Assembly: GCA_964016885.1 (NCBI GenBank)
Contig: OZ024741.1
Location: 200,694,001 to 200,758,000 of the forward strand
DNA length: 64,000 bases
DNA from: Eledone cirrhosa
Taxonomy: Eukaryota
Reading direction: 5' to 3'
Below the pieces are notes generated by a model, which saw only the letters and a list, made by a program, of their open reading frames with translations, was not told the DNA's origin and did no database searches. Of the stretch, positions 9,795-62,600 are shown piece after piece (position 1 is the stretch's first letter; every line of letters starts with the position of its first letter). The position numbers and the translations under genes were made by a program.

Positions 9795-9842
<48 letters not shown>

Positions 9843-9847
<5 letters not shown>

Positions 9848-9955
9848 ATAATAATAAAATTGAAGACTAAAATCCAAAGAGGGCTCGATAAGGAAAATAT
9901 ATATCAAATATATAAGAACCGTAGAGCAAATATTTATTAAAATAATGTTATTTTA

Positions 9956-10015: not shown

Positions 10016-10385
10016 GATATTAACAAATGGAAACTATATTTATAAAACCATATTTATTTCATTATACATATTTCAAGGATACCAAGTTAAATTATGGTAT
10101 GCCTTCATCAGACAAAATACAATATATATCAGTTTTATAAATAAACATTGACGTACCCTTTCAAAATGCAACCGTTACTTTTGGAAGACATCATTTTGTC
10201 TGATGAAGGCATACCATAATTTAACTTGGTATCCTTGAAATATGTATAATGAAATAAATATGGTTTTATAAATATAGTTTCCATTTGTTAATATCGTATA
10301 TCTACTCCAAATACTTATCGAGTGCTTTATATCAGTTATAAAAATATTTGCTTGTTGTATCCCAACAATTTAAATAGAACTTTTG

Positions 10386-13269: not shown

Positions 13270-14700
13270 CGAAATCCTCTAACAATGACCCATTCGATGT
13301 GCTGATGATGGGATCATTTGACAGTGCTGATATATGCGATTTGGTGGGCATTTTTATCTTAGATACACAACGGAAGAAATTCCCTGATTTCCATACGGGT
13401 CTATATCGTGATGATGGTCTGGAACTATCGGGCCATAAAAATGGCCATGACCTTGAAACATTTAGAAAAAAACGTGATTACTGCCTTCAGTAGCCGAGAC
13501 CTTAAAAAAATTACAATACCTACAAACTTCACCAGAGTAAACTTCCTGGGCGTTAATTTAGATCTACGTACACGCACATACAGACCATTCAACAAACCCA
13601 GTTAGACTCTAGCCACACACTATAGTTTTAAAACATCTTATAAATAACATCAGTAAGAGAGTATCCAACCTCTCTTCTAACAAAGCCATCATTGATAGGG
13701 CAGCACCCTACTACAACTAAGCACTGAACAACCGCGACTTCTCCGAAAGAATCAGTTACTCTCCAGATCACCACCCTACACCAAGCAAGAAAAAAACTAG
13801 GCATAAAGACGTCGTATGGTTCGCACCACCATTCGCACTTAATGTGAAGACCAATATAGGTAGAATATTCTTAGCCCTCCTAGATCTTCACTTCCCAGTA
13901 GGTCATAAATACCGACAGCTATTCAATCGTCATTCTGTGAAAATAGGCTACTCTTGAACGAATAACATTAAAGCCCACATCAATAGCAAACGCATACGGA
14001 TACTCATGCAGAAGGCCAGAGGCATGCCCACTAGATCAACAGTGCAACACTCCAGCGGTGATATATCAAACAGAAGTGACCTCCATCAACCAGAACCACC
14101 AAACTGAAGTCTGGACTTATGTTGGAATGTTCGAGAGCCGATTCAAAGGCCGGTACCTGAACCACGAAACACACTTCAGGCTTCCCGACAAAAATACATG
14201 CCATCCAGGCCGCGAACCATGCGCGAAACCTCAAAAATAACGACACACAATTGGAGTATATTAGGAAAATCAACCCCTATGCAAATGGGACGAAATTTTG
14301 CCGGCTATGTAACTCGGAAAAGTGGAATATACTCTCGCAACTACCTTCAGAGAAACATTGGTTAAATACCCACCTCGACCGGTTTAGTTGCTCTCCACAC
14401 GAAGCGAAATCCATATTGAGAAAATGGTATAGATCAGACTTACTGATTTTAATTTTAGGGAATCAATTTCTTTTAATAACTAACTTTGCACAAGTCACTT
14501 CCCCATTTGTAGTCTCTTTTGATAGTTACCTCCCTTTACATTATCTAAAAGACGTGTTTATTATTAGTTAAATTCGAAATTATCTGCCCTTGAAGAACTC
14601 ACGTGTATTTTGTAAATTCTTAAATCAATCTGTGCAAAGCCTTTCCTCACTTAAAAAAGCTTTAAGCACAGGCATTGCTTGATATGTGACATTTTTTTCG
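13270..14700 (+). mobile_element. 5'-truncated decayed PLE (RT C-half + GIY-YIG)
   Basis: MMGSFDSADICDLVG, GLYRDDGL, VNFLGVNLDL..YRPFNKP, VIYQ..YVG..FKGRYLNH, CRLCNSEK. A related 3' end lies inverted at about 19365-19420. Confidence 0.85.
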
Positions 14701-14705
14701 ATGAA

Positions 14706-14774
<69 letters not shown>

Positions 14775-15645
14775 TAACAGATTAAAGTTTAAGCAAAGAA
14801 TCGCTGCTTTCACCCTTAACGGGATCTTCTGAAACTAAAAAAGTCAATCTGTGAACGCAGAAGTAAGTATTTCAGAAAACGTTGCAACCGAATGAAGACA
14901 GGAAGACGATACTTTGGTTCGTGGAAACGTTCCCTGGCAAAGAACGGGAAAAAAACGAAGATAATACGTCATTATTTGGTGCGGTGAAACACTATTACAC
15001 GCAAAGACAAAACCACATTTATGGTATAAATGAAGTCGTAGACTAATATTCTGTTAGGTGGTCATGGAGACGTTCCCTGGCATTGGACGGAAATAATACG
15101 TCATTATGTGGAGCGGTGAGAACAATTACACGCAAAGACAAAATCACGTAAATGGTAGAACAGAAGTTGTAGACTAAAATTCTATTTAGGAAACCGAAAG
15201 ATTCTCGGCTACAGAGTTAAGAATAAAGTAAATAAAATACAGAGGTAATTGAAATTAAATATATGCATACACGCATCCATAAACGTACATACAAAAGTAT
15301 ACGCGAAAACACTCGTCATGGTTATGCAAATACAAGCACGTACACAAAAAACATGCACGCACATACAGAACCCACGCAACACCAGTACCCGCACACATAC
15401 GAATTTATACACCAAATACACATAAAAATATATATAAAATATATATATATGTGTGTGTGTGCACATATAATTAAATAAACGTCTATAAATATATATCTGT
15501 TATTTTAATAAATATTTGCTCTACAGCTCTTATATATTTGATATATATTTATCCTTATCGAGCCATCTTTGGATTTTTGTCTTCAAATTTATTATTATTA
15601 CTATTTGGCTCCCTCGGTTGAGCAATCTATTGACTTATATTCATC

Positions 15646-17710
15646 ATGCAGAAACAACATCTGAATATTTCTACAAAGAACATACCCGTACCTAGCAGGA
15701 AAACAAACCTAAAATTATTGAAACAGAACACAGAGGCGTTCATTAAAAGGTTGCGTTGGCGTGCCTTTTATTTCGATAATCAGGGAAAACCAGACAACAA
15801 ACAGGATAAATTTGGGTTTAAAACTTATAATAACCCTCCGAGTAACCCAGCATTGCTACCCTTCGAAAAGGATGTCTTGGAACTCATACGGAGTATCAAA
15901 TTTCGGAATAGGAGCAATTCCTTCCAGCAGGACCTGAAGAATAGGATTCGTTCTATTAAGGATTCTAATGCCGTGCACGTCCACTCCGACAAAACTGGCA
16001 ATCTATATCAAGTGGAACGCAGTACTTATCATCAACTGCTACATAATGCTGTAATTAAGGATTACCGTAAAACTAATCGGAGCGTCATTAATGAAATCAA
16101 TGATGCTGGGTTTAAAATCACCTCTGATTTCAACATCCTGGACCGGTCTGAACCTCTGGACCGTATTTCTCCCCACTTTACCCTGCAGGATCACAAATCC
16201 AATTTCCCGAACAACCCCTCTATTCGGCTTATTAACCCTACGAAGTCCGATTTAGGTAGACTTAGTAAAAGGATTTTAGATAGAATTATACCTGAAATTA
16301 GAAGTTTGGCCCCTCTTGCACCGTGGAACAATTCTTTCGCGGTGATTGATTGCTTCAACGACATATGCAACAAGGAACATTGCCGTTTTATCCAATTCGA
16401 CATCAATAATTACTACTCCTCCATCACTTTACCTCTTCTTCTTAGAGCTATCGATTTCGCTAAAACACTCACAGTGGTTAAGGATTTCGAAGTTGATGTC
16501 ATCCTCAATGCCCGTAAGTCGGTGATTAATTTCGACGACTTTATTTGGATTAAACAATCTAATTCGACGTGAGTATGGGCGCCAACGATTCTGCGGAGGT
16601 TACTGATCTTATCGGCCTTTTCCTTCTTTTCTCTATCAAGGAAGAATTCCCCAACGTGGGCGGTGGTTTGTACCGTGATGACGTTCTTTTGACCATGACT
16701 AAGTGTGGCCCACGTGCTTGCGACAGGTTCAGAAAAGAACTCGCCGACTTTTTTTTAAATCTTCAACCTCTCCATACAGGTTGAGGCCAACCTCTCGGTC
16801 GTTAATTACCTCGACGTTACCCTCAATTTGTCGAATGGCTTTCACTACCCGTATAGAAAGCCGAATGATACGCTTAATTACATAAGTAAGCATTCTAACC
16901 ATCCTGCTAGCATAACCAAGAACCTGGCAAGAAACGTTTCTTTGAGGCTTTCCCATCTATCTACAAACGAGCATATTTTCAACGACCATTCCACATATTA
17001 CAATGAAGCTCTTGCTCGGAGTGGATTTGTCGATAAGGTAGCATATACAGAGTACGAGATTAGACATAGGAAAAATAGATCCCGACACATTATATGGTAT
17101 AACCCACCGTATAATATGGAGGTGGCTACACCATTAGCTAAGATATTTCTCTCCCTTATTATGAAGCATTTCCCCCAGCACATAAATATAGTAAAATATT
17201 TAATAGAAAGATTAAGATGTCTTACTCTACGACTCCTAACCTTGCACATAACACCACAGCTTCAAATTTAGCTAAATTACCTAGCCGTAGGAACACGTGC
17301 AACCCTGTAGTTAGTACTAACTGTAATTGTAGGAATAGGGTTGACTGCCCCCTACCCGGGAAATGCCTCTCTAGTAACATTGTCTACAAATGTAAGGTTG
17401 AAACACCCACGTCCGTAGGGCCTACATAGGGGTAACCGCTAATAGATTCAAGCAGCGTCTTTACATGCATACCCATTCTTTTCTTAACCCTTTAAGAAGG
17501 AATATGACGTCACTTTCAGCTTATATCTGGAGTCTAAAAGACAACCACACCCAATATAAGTTACGCTGGGAGATCCTAGTTAAGGCCCTGGAAATACTCT
17601 ACGCCAAAGACCACATCTTAAACAAAAAATCTGACGCAATTTCGGCTTGTAAACATAAATTGCACAAAACTTTCCTGTATTACAGCCCCACATTATACCC
17701 TAACGGATAG
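15646..17710 (+). pseudogene. Frameshifted PLE ORF: reverse transcriptase + GIY-YIG endonuclease
   Basis: FIKRLRWRA, SDKTGNLY, QFDINNYYSSI, SMGANDSAE, GLYRDD, IIWYNPPY, CNCRNRVDCPLPGKCLSSNIVY, HSF..TSLSAYIWSLK, spread over about 5 ORF pieces. Confidence 0.9.
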
Positions 17711-18670
17711 TACGAACTATATGCGGATATTTTACGTCTTGATGTGTTGCTAAGTATATGTTATGTTTATACCATTACTTATTTGTATAGGTAAGTATGT
17801 ATTACCTGTATGTTTAGTGAAAGTATGTATACTTTCTCGTACGTATATTTGCTTGTATATGTTATGGCGTATATTTTATATATACTGGTACATGTGCATT
17901 TGGTTCTGTGAATACGTGAGTTTGTCGTCTGTGTGAGTATGCGGGTTCGTACGTATTTAGGGTGTGTGTATATGTGTACTTTGTGTTTTGTTTGACGTAT
18001 GCCTGCGAACATATGTATGTTTACATGTAGGTATGTATGCGCTTGTTATATACGTATTTATGTGTGTATATTTATAGATGTTTATATAATTATATGTACA
18101 CACACACACATATATATATATATTTTTAATATATATTTTTATGTGTATTTTGTGTATAAATTCGTATGTGTGCGGGTACTGGTGTTGCGTGGGTTCTGTA
18201 TGTGCGTGTTCTTTGTGTACGTGCTTGTATTTGCATACCCATGTCGAGTGTTTTCGCGTATGCTTGTGTATGTACGTTTATGGATGCGTGTATGTATATA
18301 TTTAATTTCAATTACCTCTGTATTTTATTTACTTTATTCTTAACTCTGTAGCCGATAATCTTTCGGTTTCCTAAATAGAATTTTAGTCTACGACTTCTGC
18401 CCTACCATTTACGTGGTTTTGTCATTGCCAGAGAACGGCTCCATGAACCACCTAATAAAATATTAGTCTACGACTTCATTTATACCATAAACGTGGTTTC
18501 GTCTTTGCGTGTAATAGTTTTTCACCGCTCCAAATAATGACGTATTATCTTCGTTTTTTTCCGTTCTTTGCCAGGGAACGTTTCCAAGAACCAATGTATC
18601 GTCTTCCTGTCTTCATTCGGTTGCAACGTTTTTTGAAATATTTACTCTGCGTTCACATATTGACATTTTT

Positions 18671-18721
18671 AGTTTCAGAAGATCCCGTTAAAGGTGAAAG
18701 CAGCTATTCTTTGCTTAAACT
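18671..18721 (+). ncRNA. Variant hammerhead ribozyme (CAGAAGA core)
   Basis: agttt-CAGAAGA-tcccgttaaaggt-GAAA-gcag..ttgc-TT-aaact. Further copies on the minus strand at about 14787-14837 and 62330-62380. Confidence 0.65.
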
Positions 18722-18828
18722 TTAATCTGTTATTTTAATAAATATTTGCTCTACGTTTCTTATATATTTGATATATATTTATCCTTATCGGGCCCTCTTT
18801 GGATTTTAGTCTTCAAATTTTTTATTAT

Positions 18829-18874
<46 letters not shown>

Positions 18875-29599: not shown

Positions 29600-30570
29600 T
29601 TTGTGAGTGGGGTTTAGAAAGAGGAGGGATTACCGCTGATCAAAACCTACTTAATTTACGTATTGTGGGTAGGGGAAAAAGGGGTGAGGGGGAAGATGAG
29701 AAAATATGGGAGAAGTAGAAAGGAAAGAAGTTAGAGAGAAGGAACTCGGGCCAGAGCGACCAGATATAAGATATGGATGAAAGGTAATAAATTAACTTGG
29801 GGAGCGAGGGGGGCAGTATCAGTTTTATCTAACAGAGGTTTACTTTAAGATGCCGAAAGGAACCGATACAAAGTAGGGGCGGCTCGAGGTAGGGTATTGT
29901 AAGGGGTAGGAATTAAAAGTAGAGTAGATAGAGAGATATAAGATCAGATCTAGTCGGAGTGGTATTTAGCGAAGGTTTCTAATGTCTTATATTGACAGTT
30001 AAATATTCTAGGAGGAGGGGTGTTGTAAGGGTGGATACCTAGATACAGGATCAAACCCTATGTTAGTAAGGATGATATTAAGCGAAGGTTCGTAAAGCTT
30101 TACGTTGGCAGTTAAAGATTCTATCATAACGAGAGTTCAACAGATCTGAACCACTCATAATCACTAGTACTTCCACCAGACAAAGATTACAGGAGCGTCT
30201 TTCATTTTTGTATGGGCGGGCGAAACTTAATACTGACCCGGAGAGTGTATAGCCCATATTATTCTGTTTTAAGTCCCAAATTCTTTTGGCGAAGGCGGTT
30301 GATTAGCGTAGCCCGAGATTCGTGAATGAATGTGTGTGCAAGTATCACCTTCTTTTCAAAATGTTGGATGTGGCACCCACATACTTATATATCCCAAAAT
30401 TTGTTATGACCGCACACTAGTAAATTGTGTTTTTTTTACAAGCAATTTCCATTTAAAGGACAATTGTTGGGTTGCCTGCAGTTGCACTGTGTCCTCGCAT
30501 AATGTATGGGATCGTTATTTGTACTTTATTTGGGGTGTTGTACGAGGTATGGAGAGGTTGTGTTAGAATC
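29600..30570 (-). mobile_element. PLE 3' fragment (GIY-YIG and 3' UTR) of the same type as 15646-17710
   Basis: Minus translation: QCNCRQPNNCPLNGNCL..YKYVGATSNILKRR*YLHTHSF..AKRIWDLK..RPYKNERRSCNLCLVE. Confidence 0.8.
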
Positions 30571-43114: not shown

Positions 43115-46100
43115 TGATCTCAGTGCCAGCCAGCAAATGCACTACCCAAAGAGCCGGGCAACTTTCCATGTACGTCCAATACCATGCGTAACGCAAGCAT
43201 GTAGTGCGAGATGAACAAATAAAAATTAATACACAATACCAAATCGCTTTTCCTATGGTTAATCAGGAAGTGCGTCCCTCAGGAAGGTGCCAACCTGAGA
43301 TCGAAAAGTCCTCCTCTGACACAAACTCTTCTCCAATTATGGACCTGGATGGTCACTTGATCGGGGATTGCTCCAACTCGAGCCCTCCAGATCCACCACC
43401 CAAACCACCTCAAAAAGATAAACCTAAAAGGATGAAATGGACCCGAGAAGAGTATAAAGAAGTAATATATGCATATTACTATGCATTAGGTAAGCCATCA
43501 CAAGACAGACATTCTTTAAACTCCTACAAAATCTCGGAATCAAGCTAGCAGACGTGATATGGATGGAAATAAGTTGGCAAATGTAAGGAGGTATATGTTC
43601 AGAAATAATAGACTCACAGAAACTGAACTAACTGCGATCAAGCAGGCTGTGGAGAATGACATAAATATAAATGATGAAAGAACTGAAGAATCTCCTGGAG
43701 ATAGTAACCAGTCACAAGTCTTTACTGAAAGACCTCCATCTGACCAAATCACAAATAGATTTGTAGAAATGAGAAGCCCTATTGAACTCGCTGAAAATAG
43801 CCAGGAGAGGGACTTAGAAACAGTAATTGAAAACCAAACATCTGTTGAAGAACACAGGGAGACTATGAAGGAATTAAAGCAAAAAATACTGAATGAGCTT
43901 GCAGTAGTAAGACATTCTAGTATACATTATAGAGAGCCACTTCAAAAACTCCCAAATACAATCCAAAATAGAAAACAAATAATGATTGGTAATTCTGTGA
44001 CAAAAGAAATCATAGAAGAACTAGAATCTGATCTTACTGAGTTAAATGAAATCATTTATGCATCTGCTAGAGTAATTGAAACAAGTTGTTTACCACCAAA
44101 AAAACAATAAAGTCGAACCTTCGAGGTAAACCAATTTGGAGGAGTAGAATCGAAAAGGAGATTGACGTAATGAGAGGAGAAATATCTTTATTGAGTGAGT
44201 TAACCGCTGGAAATGATATACGATCCAAGAAGGTAAGAAAGCTAAAGAGAAAATATGGACTGTCTTCTAGAGAAGCAATAGTTTCAACAAAGAATCTCTG
44301 AAACAAAAAGTCCAAGTAAAAGACCAACGAATTCGTAGATTCGAGAAGCGAAACAACTTCTACAGGCAAAATAAGTTGTTCTCATCCAATGCCAAGTCAT
44401 TTTATAGAGAAGTAGGGAAGAAAAAAATAATTATTGAAGAAGTTGAAAACTTCTGGAGTAAGATTTGGAGTGATGAGAAGACATATAATTTTAATGTAGA
44501 TTGGATTAGTCGCCTAGAAAAATCCTACACAAATTTAGAAGAACAGGCGTGGGAAGACATTTCTATAGCGGACTTAAGGACAGCACTCAATAAATCTCAT
44601 AAATGGAAATCTCCTGGTAGAGACAGGGTGCCAAATTTCTGGCTTTCCTCACTCCCGTGCACTCACAATATATTGGTCAAGCTGTTTAATGGAATTATGA
44701 AAGATCCAGAAAATACACCTGATTGGATAGCAAGTGGCATTACTTACCTTCTACCAAAGAACAACGAAACCAAAGATCCAAAAAACTATCGGCCCATAAC
44801 CTGCTTGTCCACCACTTATAAACTATTAACCTCTATTCTCATGGAAAAAGCATACGTGTTTTTGGAGGAGAACAATCTTTTCCCCATTGAACAAAAATGG
44901 TGCCGACGAGGTTCATATGGTTGTAAAGATCAACTTTTGATTAATCGTATGATCCTTGAGAACTGTCATATTAAACACAGAAATCTCAGTTCTGCATGGA
45001 TCGATTATAAAAAAGCCTTTCACAGCATACCACACTCATGGATTCTGAGATCACTGGACATCTTCAAAATCTCAAACTTCCTGAAACACAATATGTCATT
45101 ATGGAACACAAATCTCCAATTGTCTCATTCTACTGGGGTACTGTTCTCTAGGAATATAAACATCAACTGTGGTATATTCCAGGGTGACTCACTTTCACCC
45201 TTACTTTTCTGCATAGCTTACATCCGAACTTAATAGAACAGGGTACGGTTATAGAATTGACAACAAATAAATAATCCACCTATTTTATATGGATGATTTG
45301 AAGCTATATTGCAAAGATAATGACGAACTGGAAGGCCTTTTACGGACAGTAAAAACGTTTAGCGATGACATCAGGATGGAGTTTGGACTTGACAAGTGTG
45401 CCAAAGCCACTTTCAAGAAGGGGAAGCTTGTCAACTCAGACTCAGTTGAATTGGATGCTGAAACAATCATAAAGGAACTTGAGCAGGAACAAACCTATAA
45501 ATACTTCGGGATTAATGAGGGCTCTGGCATACATCATGCAAGTATGAAAAAGAGGATAAGGAAAGAATGTTACAGGAGAGTATGTGCAGTTCTGAGATCA
45601 GAACTAAACGCTCGTAACAAGGTGCTAGCCATAAATTCCTTGGCAGTCCCAGTTGTCACTTATAGCTTCGGTGTGTTGAACTGAAATATGAGTGAAATCA
45701 AAAGAATCGACACCAAAGTCCGTAAGCTACTGATCTGTAATAGGATTCACCACCCAAAAGCAGATGTGGATCGTCTTTACCTTCCTAGAACTCAAGGAGG
45801 CCGTGACCTGATCCAATTTGAACTTGCTTACAAGACCACCATCATTGGACTGGTCAAATACCTTGAAACAACTAGCGACTGTATGCTGAAACTTGTTGAA
45901 AAGCATGAGAGAAGTAAGAAGCTTCATTCTATCTTGAAGGAGAGCAAAAAATATGCTACTGCTCTCATGCTTGATACCCAGGCTGGACAGACTAAAGAAA
46001 CTGTTGCAACTGATGCTGCTAGACACATAAAATCACTGGCAAAAGCAAAAGGGCAAGGACAATTAGCATCAAATTGGGAGCAGAAACCTCTGCATGGCAA

Positions 46101-46320
46101 ATATGTGGCCCGTAGCAAACAAGCTTATGTTGACCAAAATCACACTCATCAGTGGCTACGTAGTTCAGGGCTAAAGGCGGAGAGTGAAGGCTTCATCTTA
46201 GCTGCCCAAGATCAAAGCTTATTGACACGTAATTACCAGGGCAATGTGATGAGAAACGGAATAAGCCCAAAGTGCCGATTCTGCAATGCTGAGGTTGAAA
46301 CAGTGGCTCACTTAGTCTGC
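43115..46320 (+). mobile_element. R4/Dong-type RLE LINE, 3'-truncated within the CCHC finger
   Basis: KWTREE N-terminus, KSPGRD, YRPITCL, WIDYKKAF, GIFQGDSLSPLLF, YMDD, DVDRLYLPR, AAQDQSL, CRFC..H; several stops and frameshifts. Confidence 0.9.
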
Positions 46321-46571
46321 ACACGTATTGATAAGAGCACTATCGCTGTAAGATTGATATCCCTCCTTGTATTTACATATGCATGTGCACATGTGTATAT
46401 ATGTATACTGTTTTTTTTGTTTGTTTGTTTTTTAAATTATAATCAATGTGCTGTATTAACTGGCTTACCAATGCACACTGTGAATTTATTTGCCCTAGGT
46501 GTCAGGAAGACACTCGGTATATATCTCAGAAACAATAATGAAAGAAAATAAAAATAATTATAATAATAATA

Positions 46572-46893
46572 ATCATTTCATTTATTAGCCACGAGAGCCG
46601 ATATGTAGGGGACAATACAAAAACAGGGACAGTCGGGGTTTACAATAAGGTCAAGTAAAAGTGCACAATGGCAAGACTAATTTAACAATGAAGATATTCA
46701 AATATAAAATAAACTATGTATAAATATAACAAAATAAATAAATTCCCCTATAGGGGGTGAACGACCCATGGCTGACTCAGGTACCCCACCAATCCTGAAC
46801 CACCCTGCGCTTCAAGGGCACCCAGGGAGAGCACCCCTCTCCTCAAATTAGCTAGCCTATAGGCGCATGGTCAGAGTAGGCCCATTCACACGG
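46572..46893 (-). mobile_element. 3' end of a Tx1-like LINE close to the 54199-60110 element, in (ATT)n
   Basis: The reverse complement matches 59790-60110, e.g. ttttgtattgtcccctacatatcggc..ggctaataaatgaaat. Confidence 0.85.
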
Positions 46894-47835
46894 GTCTCCT
46901 CTTTTTAACCAGTTCATGTCTGTGGATCTCAGAATTCCGTTTTCTTAAAGAAAGTGCTATGAAGGGATTTTTCATGAAGGTTGCTCTTCCTCTTTGTTGT
47001 TATTTCTTCCTTGGACATCCCCTGGTCTATTGTCTTCTCCTTCAGTACAATTTTGAGCATTGGCTCCCTACTGTCAGCCACATATTTGTGCAGGCTGTTT
47101 TCTATGCTGGTAAGACCTCTTCCACCTTCATATCTCTTTAAGTAGAGTCTATCGACATCACTCCTCTTGTGGAACATGTAGATAGTCAATAGCTTCCTAG
47201 TCTTCCTATCCATTTCTTTTTGTTCAGTAACTTTCCATTTCAGAATTCCCGCACTGTACCTAATAATAGACACAGCTCGGGAATTTACTGCAATTATGAC
47301 ATTCCTACTATTTAGATGTGATTTTAATACGTTCCTTACACTCCTGATGTATTCAGATCTTATCAATTCCTTCATTTTTTTTGTTCTTGATGTCATCAGC
47401 CTCCAGAACACCCAAATATTTGTATCCCTCTTCAGTGTCAATTTCCTTTATCATCTCACCAGTTGGTACCTGGATTCCATTGCTTCTGCTCAATTTACCC
47501 CTCTTCATCACTAGGACTCCTCGCTTATTAACACCAAATTCCATACATATATCATTGCTGAAAATACGGACAGTGTCAACAAGTACATCCAAATCCTTCT
47601 CACTTTTCCCAAAGAGTTTTAGATCATCCATGAAGAGGGGGTGGTTGTCGATGGTAAACTCTCCTCTTCCCAGCTTGTATCCTGTTCTCACTTTTCGTAA
47701 TATGAGGGACAAGGGTATGACGGTAAGGACAAACAACAAAGGGGATAAACTATGTATCTCCCTGGAAGATACCTCTCTTGATCTTCACGCCTCCCAAGGA
47801 TTCTCTACCTGATGTTAGCTCTGTTTCCCAGGAAT
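46894..47835 (-). mobile_element. R4/Dong-type RT fragment (second family)
   Basis: FMDDLKLFGK, YKYLGVLE, SDVDRLYLKRYEGGRGL; ends NWLKRGD. Confidence 0.88.
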
Positions 47836-50455: not shown

Positions 50456-53400
50456 ATGGCCGTATTCAGGATCGGAAGTGTAAACGTGTGTAGCTTGAGC
50501 TCGGTTTGGAAGCAGTGTCACTTGCTTAACGACCTCAGGTCACTAAACATAGATGCGGTGGCCATCAGCGAGACGAGAATCTCCGAAACGTAAGCTTTCG
50601 CATCGGTCTTCGACGGTTACGAGGTGTACACATCTCCAAGCCGTCTGGGAGCGGGGGGCGGAGTGGCTGTGTTGTTTCGGAAAGGCTTGGGTCTCGCCAT
50701 ACGGACCATATTCCTGGACCCAGAAGGTAAGTCAGTAGTGCTGGACATAAGCGGCACCGAAGGCAACGTTTTCAGGCTAGTAGCCGTCTACGCCCCGACA
50801 GGGACAGGACGGCCAGATTTCTTCAGACGTTTAGAGACCTTTCTTGGAACGTCCCGCTCTTTAGTGTTAGTGGGGGACTGGAACGGTATCTTGGATGCAC
50901 GCTGGGATTGTGTGGGGCTAGTGGGTAGAGGAGGGTGCAAGAGCCTCACCAACCTGCTCAGACGTTTTGAACTGTCTGACAGGTATCGACTGGATCAACC
51001 GAATGTGCCAATGTGGACAAACCGCATCGGGTCATCCAGATCGTATCTCGATAGGGTATTCTGCAGAGAACTAGATAAGGCTGGTATAAGTTGTCCACAA
51101 TTTAAAATAGTCGACTACACAGACCACAAATTTGTGATCTGTGAGATCAACATAGACAGACTTCATAGACAAAGACCCGGTTATTGGAAGCTGAACGCGT
51201 CTTTCCCGGCGCGCAAAGCCTACAGAGACCGGGTTAGCGTATCAGTTAAGCGGGCGTTGACGGGAGCAGTCGTCAACAACAGGTGGTGGTTCGCCCTGAA
51301 AAGGGCAATTAAAGTAGAGTCGATTAGGTTTAGCAAAGGACTAGTGATAGAGGAAAATAGAGTAGCGGGAGAGCTAGTCAGAAAGCTAGAAGAGGCGTTT
51401 AGGTCACGCATCGCAACCGACGTGCTTGCAGTGAGATTGGCACTCGACCAATTCTTCAACGCAAAGCACGAATGCTGCATTGTCAGAGCTAGAGCGCGTG
51501 CTCTGAAACACGAGGGGACAAAAGCCGTCCAATGGGCCCGGGTGGCAGAGGCGCGACGTGGCAACAAAACCACAATTCGGTCTTTGTCTGACCAAAACGG
51601 GTGCATGATGCTCGAACCCGAGCGGATGTGTGAAGCTTTTCAGCAGCACTTTGCTGAACTATTCGGGAGCGGCGGCGGGCCAGACGGGGGTGTGGACTTC
51701 AGTGCATACCTCGACGGACTGCCTCGGCTCTCGACGACCGCAGCACAGTGTTGCGAAAAGCCAATAACAGCCGGTGAAATACGGGAAGCGATGACTAACT
51801 GCACAAGGAGTAAATCGCCAGGTTTGGATGGTCTGCCCTACAAGCTTTATGCATTTATTCCAGACTTGTTCGGTGACCTCTTGGCAGACGTCTACTGCAA
51901 CTGGCAGCAGAACGGGAGCATTCCCAGTTTTGTGAGCCGGGGAGCAGTGGCGCTGCTGAGAAAAGACCCGAACAAGGGGGATGTTATCGATAATTTCAGG
52001 CCCATAACCCTGCTAAACGCAGAGTTCAAGATTTTGGCCAAGATGTTAGCAACGAGGTTGGCACTTGTCGTGAAGGGTCTGGTGGGAGAGGCACAGACAT
52101 GCGCCATTCCGGACAGATCCATACACGACAACCTCCACCTCATGCGATACATCATAGAGAGGGTGGTTAAGGAACCTGGCACGGGTGTGGCCCTGATCAA
52201 CTTGGATCAATCAAAAGCATTCGATAGGGTCGACCATCGGTACCTGGCGGCGGTCCTCGAGGCAGCCGGTTTCGGGCCCGTTTTCAGGGGTTGGATCGCT
52301 GCGATGTACAGCGATATCTGCTTAGTTGTAAGGGTGAACGGTCACCTGTCCCAGCCGTTCAGCATCATGCGCTCAGTCCGCCAGGGTTGTCCCCTCTCGT
52401 CCCTCTTGTACGTATTGACTCTCGAGCCGTTACTGCACAAACTGGAGACGATGAGGTGCGTCCCACGCGAACTAGGATGCGAGAAATCCGAGTGGGCTTA
52501 CGCTGACGACGCCACCGTGGTAGTGTCGAGCACCAGACACGTCCAGATGCTCGGCACCGCTCTCAAGGAATACGAAGCGGTGACAGGAGCAAAGATAAAC
52601 CAGGAAAAGTCGGTGGGCTTGCAGCTCGGCACCTGGAGAGGCAAGTCCATGCCGTCCGACAGCGTCGTGGGGCGTTGTACGGACGGACCGGTTAAATTGC
52701 TCGGGGTCTGGTTCGGACCGGACCTCCAGATGGAGAAAAACTGGAACGAGGTGACGAGCAGGGTGGCCTCCCTCACCAAGAAATGGGCCGAGAGGAAGCT
52801 GTCCCTGAAAGGCCGGGCGGAGGTGGCGAATGCGTACATCGCATCCGTCATCTGCTACCGCCTCACCGTCATCCCTTGCTCCAACACAACTCTCACCAAA
52901 ATGGAGCGCCTCCTCTTCCGCTTTTTGCGGAAGGGACGCGCTCCCATGGTCAGACGATCCATCTGCTGTCAACACCCGTTGCGTGGAGGACTGGGCATGC
53001 CATGGCTGATGATGCGCAAATATGCGCTGAGGCTGCGACATCTATGGTGCTTCCTTGATGGTGAACAGGTGTGGTCGCCGTTCGCCAGGCACGTTTTCCC
53101 ACAGCTCGTCTCCTTGACGGAGCTGCAGTCCTGGGTCAGAAAAAGACCGAGGGATAGCGCTTGGAAACTGGAATGTCTACAGGCGCTCATTGCCCTCTGC
53201 TAGCTGGGCACCAGTATCGGTGGAACATCCACCTCGGCGTTCTATAGAGGACTAGTGGAGGGGAAGAGCGACGACATTCTCGGAGAGATCCTGGGGGTCG
53301 AAGAAGATCAGTTGTTTGCTCTCTTCCGGAGAACTTTCAGCTCGGGACTTTTGGATAACTTCCAAAAAACCCTGGCCTGGCAGTGCTACCGGGGAGCGTT

Positions 53401-53864
53401 GCCGGTTCGAGATAAGCTCTACAGGCACGGAAGTGCCGTCAGCCGAGCCTGTCCGAGATGCGCGCAGAACGACGAAACCGTCGTGAACGCACTCGTTCAG
53501 TGCCCGAGCATTGCTGACTTTTGGAGCTATGTCGAACAGTTGTTGTCGCGTGTAGGACTGATCCGGTTGTCGACTGAGTCCATTGAGCAGATGGTCTCGC
53601 CGTCTTCCTTCGAGGATAAAGGGCAGGCGATTTTCATCTGCCTGGTGGCCATGGCGAAAGAGATTGTGTGGTGGACAAGGTTAAAAGGGTTAAAGACAGA
53701 CTTTCCTCTTCGGTGAATCCCTAATTAACTTTTTCAAGTTTCACTTGAAGAGGAAAATCAGGGTGGAGAGGCAAGTGCTGCCTTCTAGCAAGTTTGTTGA
53801 AAGGTGGGTGAATGTAGCGAGAATGGTCCGAGTGAACGGGACCACTCTGAATATACGTCTGTAG
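50456..53864 (+). pseudogene. Element 1 ORF2 (APE endonuclease + RT + C-terminal CCHC)
   Basis: VGDWN, YTDH, KSPGLDGLP, FRPITLLN, LDQSKAFDRVDH, VRQGCPLS, AYADD, CPRC; in-frame stops at 50591 and 53201 and a frameshift near 53712. Confidence 0.93.
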
Positions 53865-56394: not shown

Positions 56395-56425
56395 ACCTTC
56401 CTCTCTCTCTGTTTAACCTGCCAAC

Positions 56426-59400
56426 ATGGCCGTATTAAGAGTAGGATGTTTAAATGTTCGAGGCCTGGGATCTTCCTGGAAGCAGGGTCACCTGCTCAAC
56501 GACCTCAGGTCTATAGAAATGGATGTAATTGCAGTCAGCGAGACCAGGATTTCCGACACGCGCGCACTAGCCCCCATTTTCGACGACTATCAGATCTTTG
56601 CATCTATTAGCCGGCTGGGAATGGGAGGCGGGGTGGCAGTGCTGTTTAGGAAAGGCCTGGATCTCGAGGTAAGGTCGATCTTCTGGGATCCGGACGGGAA
56701 GTTGGTGTTCCTGGACGTGAACAATAATGAAGGCGGTGCCTTTAGACTGGTGGCCGTCTATGCTCCTACTGGGGCAGGACGGCCGGACTTCTTTAGACGC
56801 CTGGAAGCCTTTCTGGGTACGTCTCGCCCTTTACTGTTAGCGGGGGACTGGAACGGCATCTTAGACGCACGCTGGGACTGTGTGGGAGTATCTGATAGGA
56901 GTGGTGGGTGCAAAAGCCTCAAGAACCTGATCAGCCAGTTCCAACTGTCTGACAGGTACCGACTAGATTTCCCTAATGCGCCAGTGTGGACCTGGGCTAA
57001 CCGCATAGGGTCATCTAGATCGTATATAGACAGGATATTAATTAGGAAAATAGACAGAAATAGTGTAAGCTGTCCACGTTTTGAAACGGTCGCCTATTCA
57101 GATCACAAGTTTGTGATCTGTATGGTCGACCTAGATAAGACGCGTAGGTTAGGGCCTGGTTACTGTAAGCTAAACATGTGATTTCCGGCACGTAAGGCTT
57201 ACAGGGACCAAGTCAACAATTTAGTTAAGAAAAAGTTGACGGGGAATCGTCAACAATAGATGGTGGGGGCTCTCAAAAGAGAGATTAGAGTAATGTCGAT
57301 AGAGTTTAGCAAAGAAGTAGCATTAGAGAAAAATAGAAAGGAGGAGGAGTTGGTAGATAAGTTAGACGAGGCTATTGGTAGTGGCATTGCAACTGATGTG
57401 CTAGCGGCGAGAATGGCATTAGACCATTTCTTCAATGCGAAACACGAAGGTTGCATTGTCAGAGCTAAGGCGCGTGCTCTGAGAAACGAGGGAACCAAAG
57501 CTGTTCGATGGGCCCGCGTGGCAGAGGCGCAGAGTGGTAATAAAACCACGATTCGGTCTTTGACGGACCGAGACGGGCACGAGCTGAGCGATTCCAAGAG
57601 GATGTGTGAGGCCTTTCGCCAACATTTTGCTCAGTTGTTCAGAGATGATGACGGACTTCAGTCCCTACCGTGATGGCTTGCCGCAACTCTCGACGGCTGA
57701 CGCTGGGCGCTGCGAAAGGCCAATTACTTCAGCCGAGCTTCAGGATGCCCTTGTCGGCTGCATGAGGCGCAAGTCACCCGGTTTGGGTGGTCTACCCTAC
57801 GAGCTTTACGTAAATATGCCAGACTTGTTCTCCAATCTCTTCGAAGCCCTCAACTGCAACTGGCAGCAAAACGGGAGTATTCCCAGTTCTGTGAGCCGGG
57901 GCGTAGTGACGCTGATAAAAGACGAGGAAAGACGAGAACAAGAGGGACACATTAGACAATTTCAGGCCCATAACTCTGCTCAACACAGAGTTTAAGATTT
58001 TGGCCAGGGTGTTAGCGAAGAGGTGGCGCTTGTCGTCGGGGATTTGGTTGGGGAGGCGCAAAATTGCGCAATCCCAACCAGGTCCATACACGACAACCTC
58101 CACCTAATGCGATACATCATAGAGAGGGTAGGGTGTACACCTGGCTTCGGTGAGGCTCTGATCAATTTAGATCAATCGAAAGCATTCGATAGGGTCGACT
58201 ATCGGTACCTGGAGGCTGTCCTCAAGGCGGCTGGCTTCGGCCCCGTCTTCAGAAGCTGGATCGCTGCAATGCACAGCGGCACCTGCTCGATGGTCAAAAT
58301 TAATGGCCACCTCTCGGAACCGTTTCAGGTCTCCCGATCGGTCCGTTAAGGGTTCCCTCTCTCCTCCCTTCTGTACGTATTGACTCTCGAGCCTTTACTG
58401 CGGAAGCTGGAGCTGTTGCAGGGCATCCCACTCGAACCGGGACGCGGAAAGGCTGCGTCGGCTTATGCGGACGACATCACCGTGATGGTGTCGGACACCT
58501 CAGAAATCGAGGTGGTCGGCAACTTATTGGAGGAATATGAAAGGTTGACGGGAGCAAAACTTAACCCGGAAAAGTCAATGGACTTGCAACTCGGCACCTG
58601 GAGAGGCAAGTTCATGCCGTCCAACAGCGTCGTTAGGCGCTGGACGGACGGACCGGTAAAATTGCTAGGGGTTTGGTTCGGCCCACACCTCCAGGTGGAT
58701 AAGAATTGGGACGAGGTGACGGGCAGGGTAGTCAGTCTCACCCATAAATGGGCTGGGATGAAGCTATCACTGAAAGGTCGGGCGGAGGTGGCGAACGCGT
58801 ACATCGCGTCCGTCATCCACTACCGTCTGACTGTCGTCCCTTGCCCCCGTTCGCGCCTCGCCATCTTGGAGCGGCTCCTCTTCAAATTCTTGTGGAGGGT
58901 CAGGTTCGGCTGGTGAGGCGGTCCATCTGCTGCCAGCACCCTCTACGTAGAGGGCTGGGCATGCCGTGGCTAATGATGCGCAGGCACGCGCTGAGGCTGC
59001 GGCATCTCCAGATATTCTGCCTAAACGGTGAACAGGTGTGGTCGCCGTTTGTCAGACGGGCCTTTCCGCAACTCGTTTCTTTGACTGAGTTGCAGTCCTG
59101 GGTCAAGAAGAGACCGAGCCTGGGTGACTGGCATCTGCAATGTTGCCAGGCACTCACTGCCCTCTATCAGGCGGGCAATGCGGTCAGTGGAACTTCCACT
59201 CTCGAGTTCTATAGAGGATTAGTGGTGGGCAAGTGCGACGACGCACTCGGAGAGGCTCTGGGAGTCAACGAAGTCGAACTAACCAGTCTGTACCGGAGGA
59301 CTTTCGAGCCGGGGACGATGGATAATTTCCAAAAATCCCTCGCTTGGCAGTGTTACCGGGGGGCACTGCCGGTTCGAGATAAACTTTACAGGCACGGAAG

Positions 59401-59829
59401 TGCTGTCAGACGGACCTGCCCGAGATGCGCGCAGAGCGACGAAACCGTTCTGCACGCACTCGTCCAGTGTCCGTGCATTACTGACTTGTGGAGTTATGTT
59501 GAACAGCTGTTGTCGCTTGTAGAACGGATCCGGCTATCGGCCGAGTCCATAGTGAAGTTCGACCAGCCGCCTTCTTTTGGCCAGGAAGGGCAATTTTCCT
59601 CTGTCTGGTGGCAGTAGCGAAAGAGGTTGTATGGTGGACGAGGTTGAAAGGACTGAAGACAGATACTTTTCTCTTCGGCCAATCCCTCATCAACTTTTTC
59701 AAGTTTCACTTGGAAAGGAAGGTGAGGGTGGAGAGAGAAGTGCTTCCCCCCAGTACATTTGCTGAAAAGTGGGTGAATGTGGCGAGAATGGCCCGTGTGA
59801 GTGGGCCTACTCTGGTCATGCGGTTGTAG
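56426..59829 (+). pseudogene. Element 2 ORF2 (APE + RT), multiply disrupted
   Basis: LRVGCLNVRGL, VSET, AGDWN, YSDH, LDQSKAFDRV, AYADD, CPRC..HALVQC. Confidence 0.92.
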
Positions 59830-61466: not shown

Positions 61467-61662
61467 GTTTTAATATAGATGAGATTCTACAGGACTAGAA
61501 CTGTTTCATTCTTTAGAAATCATCAGGAATCCTGATGATTTCTAAAGAATGAAACAGTTCTAGTCCTGTAGAATCTCGTCTATATTAAAACGTTTATACT
61601 CTGCGATGTATTGAGTACCTTACTTACTGTGGTTACCTCCGATTCAACCCGGAATAACGTAC

Positions 61663-62219: not shown

Positions 62220-62600
62220 AGTAATAATAAATATGAAGTCTTAAATCCGAAAAGGCCACGATAAGGATTATATATATATAATATATATATAAACCCGTAG
62301 AGCAAATATTTATTATAAGAACAGATTAAGCTTTAAGCAAAGAATCGCTACTTTCATCCATACCGGGATCTTCTGAAACTAAAAAAAAAATCAATCTGTG
62401 AACGCAGAAGTAAATATTTCGAGAAACGTTACAACCGAAGGAAAACAGGAAGACGATACTTTGGTTCGTGAAGACGTTCCCTGGCAATGAACGGAAAAAA
62501 AGCGAAGATAATTACGCCGTTATGTGGATTGATGAGAACAAAATCTTGCTAAGACAAAAACCTATTTATGCTATAAATGGAGTCATAGACTAATATTTAA
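62220..62600 (-). mobile_element. Diverged 3' end of the 14768-18833 PLE family
   Basis: Colinear inverse of about 18460-18833; abuts (TA)n. Confidence 0.85.

Follow-up and report, generated by a model that had tools for sequence, protein, structure and literature searches.

The Penelope-like element and its surroundings

The analysed window, a stretch of 64,000 nucleotides from contig OZ024741.1 of Eledone cirrhosa (assembly GCA_964016885.1, forward-strand positions 200,694,001 to 200,758,000), contains a Penelope-like element (PLE) of about 3.2 kb that has an inverted arm plus a direct stub and lies, together with both, in (TA)n. Its open reading frame (15646–17710, + strand) encodes a reverse transcriptase (RT) with a C-terminal GIY-YIG domain of the Hydra-clade type. 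In-frame stops and two frameshifts interrupt the window copy, and stop-free frames of 713 aa are found in many other genomic copies of the element. The direct 5′ stub (15495–15602, + strand) is a partial tandem equivalent to 18725–18832, and the inverted arm (14770–15494, − strand) is 5′-truncated. A short 3′ stub of the same element (9842–9945, − strand), equivalent to 18730–18831, lacks the motif described below. At the 3′ end of the element (18732–18832, + strand), copies end either near 18737–45 or at 18832 in (TA)n, and these two positions likely represent two starts of reverse transcription, with a one-sided tail. Three DNA contigs (X1–X3), which come from a single sample and may be the source of the window itself, were not counted as independent evidence.

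The proteins of three stop-free copies (L175, L183 and L189) contain an RWK-like motif, DKT, a CxCX5C linker and, at the C-terminus, a GIY-YIG domain that has CxxC and CxH but no CCHH. Hydra-clade PLEs with type I hammerheads were described by Craig et al. (2021; PMC8557442), and the available parts of that account list RWR (here RWK-like), DKT, the CxCX5C linker, a C-terminal GIY-YIG domain without CCHH and insertion into (TA)n as features of the clade, together with a near-palindromic stem III and a hammerhead about 100–200 nt from the 3′ end. The Eledone element likewise lies in (TA)n as a tandem and inverted structure with a tail, and 115 nt separate its hammerhead motif from the unit's 3′ end. 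Two features depart from the clade description: the unit of about 3.2 kb is longer than the ‘generally’ stated length of under 3 kb, and the hammerhead core is not canonical, with A at position 4 (A4). Judged by its protein motifs, which were compared with the published proteins by eye, the element is a Hydra-clade PLE. A protein search returned nine relatives, the best at 53% identity, a Pfam scan of the protein fragments assigned no family, and metagenome scans for relatives had no match. Decayed ORF remnants of more distant Hydra-type PLEs, 32–56% identical in pieces, occur at 13272–14083 (+) and 30069–30492 (−), and a loose scan of the adjoining sequence found no hammerhead.

Architecture and folding of the hammerhead motif

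The minimal motif occupies 18671–18721 (+ strand) and comprises stem I, a CAGAAGA core, stem II, GAAA, a 5-bp stem III and a CUU cleavage triplet, with a predicted cut between 18716 and 18717, where no class of genomic copies begins. An earlier note on this DNA had reported these parts and the cut after 18716, and all were found as described. The three helices surround the core and are open at stem I, as in type I hammerheads, and C3, G5, A6, G8, A9, G12, A13, A14, the A15.1–U16.1 pair and H17 are all present; the motif corresponds position by position with the Hydra-clade rows in File S2 of PMC8557442. The exception is U4 of the CUGA turn, which canonical hammerheads carry and which is replaced by A at 18677. 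Stem II has only 3 bp and is closed by a U.U pair. In File S2, read by eye, a U.U closing pair (10.1/11.1) is present in 14 of the 26 Hydra-clade rows and U at the cleavage position in 10 of 26 (PMC8557442), and U10.1–U11.1 is described as tolerated in hammerheads in the available text of Perreault et al. (2011; PMC3088659). From its sequence and predicted fold, the motif is a homolog of the type I hammerhead, carried by a Hydra-clade PLE.

The limits first given, 18671–18721, hold for the minimal motif but are too short for the whole, since a 9-bp extension of stem I (18655–63 paired with 18722–30) and a 7-nt bulge (18664–70) bring the full motif to 18655–18730. This full form requires an RNA transcribed through from upstream. 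A second copy of the motif in the inverted arm was confirmed at 14786–14836 (− strand), with the majority sequence and A4.

The window copy at 18671–18721 has three private changes (18658, 18692 and 18705), and its hammerhead fold is predicted at −6.7 kcal/mol, against −13.0 kcal/mol for the majority copy; the window 51-mer folds no better than its shuffles (z 0.58). Even in the majority copy, another fold is predicted to be more stable than the hammerhead (−15.1 vs −13.0 kcal/mol). A4 adds a rival helix between the 5′ strand of stem I and GAAA, with a pair probability of 0.39 compared to 0.00 with U, and in the 51-mer that begins at 18671 this helix is dominant (pair probability 0.70 with A4). 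Pairing of stem III between two molecules is feasible (−12.9 kcal/mol). Across 27 natural copies, 92% of cells are paired in the hammerhead helices, versus 21–58% for partners slid out of register. The covariation that the earlier note had proposed to look for did not appear in these 27 copies: one pair had changed on both sides, against 1.2 in shuffles, and the stems are nearly invariant. The helices are kept by not changing, that is, the sequence itself is held. The Rfam hammerhead models matched neither an A4 copy nor a natural U4 copy, so that the failure to match is not peculiar to A4. Searches with a strict CUGANGA descriptor would overlook the motif, as had been pointed out.

A4 as the state of the family

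Exact matches to a 14-mer of the motif in the E. cirrhosa genome number 30,213 with A at position 4 and 199 with T, giving A in 30,213 of 30,412 (99.3%); a reversed control 14-mer matched once, and the matches are therefore not due to chance. A4 was also present in 140 of 142 copies selected by patterns outside the motif. A family consensus of CUGAAGA, the outcome that would have told against the earlier note, was thus not observed, and its view of CAGAAGA as a family trait and not decay is borne out by these counts and by the older subfamilies of the element. It had drawn that view partly from a supposedly diverged copy near 62330. The copy (62329–62380, − strand) belongs to an intermediate subfamily and does carry the same core, but it is weak evidence because its differences, in loop 2 and stem I, are private and its nearest relatives have the majority motif; genuinely older subfamilies provide the support in its place.

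A pattern with a 6-nt loop 2 and position 4 left free had 326 matches genome-wide, and three older subfamilies were recognised among 70 of these loci plus one other. A4 is present in 44 of their 47 non-junction motifs. Survival of U4 as the ancestral state was considered and rejected, as eight of the nine T4 cases in the older-subfamily loci are inversion junctions at a TTC-N-GAA palindrome. Such inversions within the core (e.g., L292, L319 and L346) create an accidental CTGAAGA box, from which the original stem I is absent. The oldest subfamily, with 168 matches, was retrieved by a stem III pattern that placed no restriction on the 5′ core, stem II or GAAA; 14 of 30 loci could be aligned, the remaining ones breaking upstream, and A4 was found in 13 of the 14, in a core the same as that of the young family. 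Copies of this subfamily differ from their own majority by 14.7%, compared to 4.8% in the young family. A4 is fixed through at least four successive subfamilies.

The majority sequences of the oldest and youngest subfamilies were compared using 15 old copies, chosen by eye for intact upstream sequence, and 23 young copies. None of 15 core positions had changed, versus 8 of 19 loop positions (p 0.0045) and 42 of 102 flank positions (p 0.001). For paired and core positions together, the script scored 3 changes in 60, namely one A–U to G.U change that keeps the pair and two single-base insertions at helix edges. The core has thus stood still as loops and flanks diverged, from which it follows that A4 is of long standing and that the core is under constraint. 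In young copies picked irrespective of the motif and scored for lineage-level variants, sites varying at 5% or more amount to 0 of 56 in paired or core positions and 2 of 16 in loops, against 22 of 158 upstream (p 0.0014 relative to paired and core positions). In the 100 nt downstream of the motif, only 3 of 89 sites vary, which does not differ significantly from the motif. Since this downstream sequence is equally constant and the motif lies at the front (+1 to +51) of the likely transcript, a promoter or protein-binding constraint could also explain the conservation. A T-run and GAAATAT block at 18627–18644, about 32–44 nt upstream of 18671, was kept from oldest to youngest subfamily while the flanks changed; in the older subfamilies it is followed by a TATA-like hexamer, a candidate promoter element.

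A further lineage, with 339 matches, has lost stem II and often has a changed C3. It represents an old end fragment of the PLE (L229–L258) that travels as a passenger in another mobile repeat, most of 30 loci sharing 1–2 kb of non-PLE flank. Its abundance was therefore rejected as proof that the element can move without the fold, and as a passenger it is uninformative on the element's own needs.

A canonical-core family and other window elements

A second family, represented at 61480–61530, has a canonical CUGAUGA core in a similar build and is about as abundant (28,397 matches). High copy number thus does not depend on A4, and A4 as its cause was not supported. The window holds an inverted stub pair of this family (61480–61590, − strand) with a U.U closing pair and a long stem III, and in several loci a TATA box lies about 30 nt upstream of the motif. 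Its structure suggests that this family too is a PLE; 20 loci gave no protein match. A third hammerhead with a canonical core and a long stem II occurs in an inverted pair in (TA)n at 10055–10290.

The window also contains two related elements (50594–53716 and 56417–59617), LINE-like by their motifs, with APE endonuclease and RT frames; in front of each lies a gag-like ORF that has a zinc knuckle. Broken reverse transcriptase frames at 43520–47447 are RTE/R4-like by their motifs.

Where genomic copies begin

The direct stub of the window copy does start at the equivalent of 18725, 8 nt past the predicted cut, and this had been read as a sign that self-cleavage defines the 5′ end of the RNA. 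The stub start itself is correct; its agreement with the cut is coincidental. There were 411 copies with a 5′ junction, and among the first 70, read for breakpoints, four broke within 18707–18730, where 3.7 were expected. In the same set, 36 full-length copies continue upstream across an intact motif, and the stub starts are scattered, with no excess at the cut. Among 90 of the 23,019 genome-wide matches to the 3′ end, four breakpoints fell in 18707–18730 (7.1 expected) and 14 in 18670–82 (3.0 expected), the latter interval having been picked post hoc and two of the 14 being misaligned. The earlier note had itself held that 5′ ends unrelated to the cut would speak against its proposal, and for the 5′-end claim this is what the copies show.

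A sharp end is found instead at A18671, the first base of stem I. Genome-wide, a non-template base precedes A18671 (template T) in 2,919 of 21,970 copies (13.3%), while a non-template base precedes the cut-site A18717 in 820 of 40,409 (2.0%), a value near the level of mutation plus ordinary truncation. The break is exactly at A18671 in 28 of 30 loci with a non-template base. In the first 100 such copies the base is G in 58, against 28% expected from the window composition; at A18717 the preceding base is G in 42 of the first 100, to which microhomology in stem I contributes. That microhomology alone yields the extra G at A18671 was rejected, since by eye it can explain 5 of 19 G cases and in some inversions (L424/425 and L439) each of the two arms stops at 18671 and carries a G of its own. 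The A18671 context (18669–18675, + strand), TTAGTT or in older subfamilies TCAGTT, is initiator-like, and in the copies that begin at A18671 the extra G mostly precedes it.

A18671 is likely a capped transcription start, and the extra G may be the reverse-transcribed cap, by analogy with what is known for the L1 and retroviral enzymes. Untemplated addition without a cap is a possible source of the G as well. An HDV-like ribozyme cutting at its own 5′ end was also considered for the 18671 end, with the P1.1 pseudoknot and a conserved L3 compared by eye, and was rejected because the would-be L3 loop varies freely among subfamilies. The G-marked 5′ end maps the likely transcription start from DNA alone.

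Comparison with known hammerheads

All 26 Hydra rows in the consulted part of PMC8557442 read ctga, the descriptor used there having demanded CUGANGA, whereas the Eledone family carries A4. The stem III arms also differ: 8 nt and closable as a monomer in the Eledone family, against 3–4 nt in Hydra-clade hammerheads. Hydra-1_oBim has a canonical core and is not the family described here. As in known PLE type I hammerheads, the motif lies within the terminal repeat and low activity would be expected; unlike the terminal-repeat hammerheads compared, helix III is well formed. The circular-template model for known PLE hammerheads predicts copies that read through the site, as the Eledone copies do.

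Among core variants, the fixed U3–A8 of Schistosoma is a compensatory pair swap, whereas U4A changes the U-turn with no evident partner. Rare natural core variants with low but real activity are known, including a U4C viroid variant that stays infectious and retains sufficient activity in vivo (PMC3088659, Perreault et al., 2011). In the available text of that paper the variants are single isolates and U4A is not named, while A4 in Eledone is fixed in about 30,000 copies. According to the portion of a pairwise mutagenesis study available, every CUGA-region mutant, single or double, was low in activity except the C3–G8 swap (PMC9901934). A literature search for U4A or CAGAAGA hammerheads returned nothing relevant; likely key papers lie outside that search, and absence from print is not established by it.

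A PLE hammerhead described in the accessible part of PMC11167929 was protein-assisted and dispensable for insertion in vitro. The Anolis PAc Poseidon element treated there shares two internal RT starts, a one-sided tail, uncut RNA as the main template and a lack of reads at the cut with the Eledone element, but its core is canonical and its hammerhead overlaps the ORF start, neither of which applies here (PMC11167929).

Possible roles of the A4 motif

The reading preferred here, held at about even confidence and resting on comparative evidence, is that the A4 hammerhead is a slow, protein-assisted self-cleaving ribozyme that does not make the RNA 5′ end. Capped transcription would start at A18671. 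A start at this base leaves out the bulge and the long stem I's upstream strand, so that the extension has no way to form and the motif's 5′ copy would be a weak form. The downstream copy, to which transcription would run on from the ORF, would have stem I complete and might cut now and then; no other copy has the long stem I, and that this is the main working site is predicted at about an even chance. Such a cut would trim the 3′ end of the transcript or yield unit-length RNA. Reverse transcription would begin past the cut, 20 or 115 nt downstream, with a template RNA that is uncut there or re-joined, and nearly all copies would keep an intact motif for that reason. The unchanged core and stems, next to drifting loops and flanks, count in favour of a slow ribozyme, as do the 99.3% share of A4, the tolerated U.U pair and the infectious U4C viroid variant (PMC3088659), the protein-assisted PLE hammerhead of PMC11167929, and the broken stem II and the often changed C3 of the passenger lineage in another repeat. 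Counted against it are the lack of compensatory pairs, the rival fold, the constant downstream 100 nt, the abundance of the canonical-core family and the low activity of CUGA-region mutants in the part of PMC9901934 consulted. A more elaborate form of the proposal, which is rather doubtful, is an asymmetric design in which the capped start disarms the 5′ copy and the long stem I and bulge rescue A4 in the read-through 3′ copy. This would give a one-sided, rate-tuned switch of translation or termination versus reverse transcription.

A substantial but lesser probability attaches to a motif that has lost cleavage and is retained for a role in structure or as DNA, for instance as an internal promoter (+1 to +50) or as a scaffold to which the RT-endonuclease binds. 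The low activity of U-turn mutants in the accessible data of PMC9901934, the rival fold favoured by A4, the lack of covariation and the start of the motif at the likely transcription start all agree with such a role, and an internal promoter is described for Drosophila Penelope in the available text of PMC2377424. Naiad PLEs also proliferate without hammerheads. In the sections of PMC11167929 available, cleavage was dispensable for insertion in vitro. Against this role, the remaining core bases, G8, G12 and the unpaired U17 among them, are fixed although loop bases in between changed, and the stem I extension, whose 5′ strand lies upstream of the start site, is kept too. At the other extreme, A4 might be fully tolerated, with the long stem I and bulge, A7 or a stem III dimer allowing cleavage at the usual rates of PLE hammerheads. 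The strong constraint and the pairing of two molecules through the near-palindromic stem III (−12.9 kcal/mol) would suit this, but it is unlikely given the rival fold and the failure of second mutations to rescue CUGA-region mutants in the one hammerhead studied in the available part of PMC9901934. The genomic copies do not report on activity here: the canonical-core family equally lacks copies at its cut, a non-template base preceding it in only 51 of 3,898, and absence at the A4 cut therefore neither proves nor excludes cleavage.

A neutral relic, in which the ribozyme died with the change to A4 and decay of the sequence has simply yet to follow, would account for the lack of covariation, but is very improbable beside 0 of 15 core changes when about 40% of loop and flank positions changed between subfamilies. 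Least probable of all is a template RNA whose 5′ end is made by self-cleavage, with full copies beginning at the cut: the window stub 8 nt past the cut and the four of 70 breakpoints in 18707–18730 are what would speak for it, and these are offset by the chance expectations in both sets of copies and by the genome-wide 2.0% at the cut against 13.3% at A18671. For genomic copies the breakpoint counts refute it; cut RNAs could still exist, as a class that is not copied.

Significance for Penelope-like elements

The A4 motif is a real, constrained core variant of a known hammerhead kind. The role of PLE hammerheads is treated as an open question in the available parts of PMC8557442 and PMC11167929, and the Eledone family offers a natural test system, since the element is young, codes for protein and has about 30,000 copies of the motif, with the U-turn change fixed and older subfamilies dated, in a genome where a canonical-core family of similar size serves as a built-in control. 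Should the A4 form cut, hammerheads can do without U4, and ribozymes are being undercounted by CUGANGA descriptors, perhaps also in PLE families reported to have none. If it does not cut, a PLE keeps the hammerhead fold for a non-catalytic job, and a large autonomous PLE family would be moving without its ribozyme.
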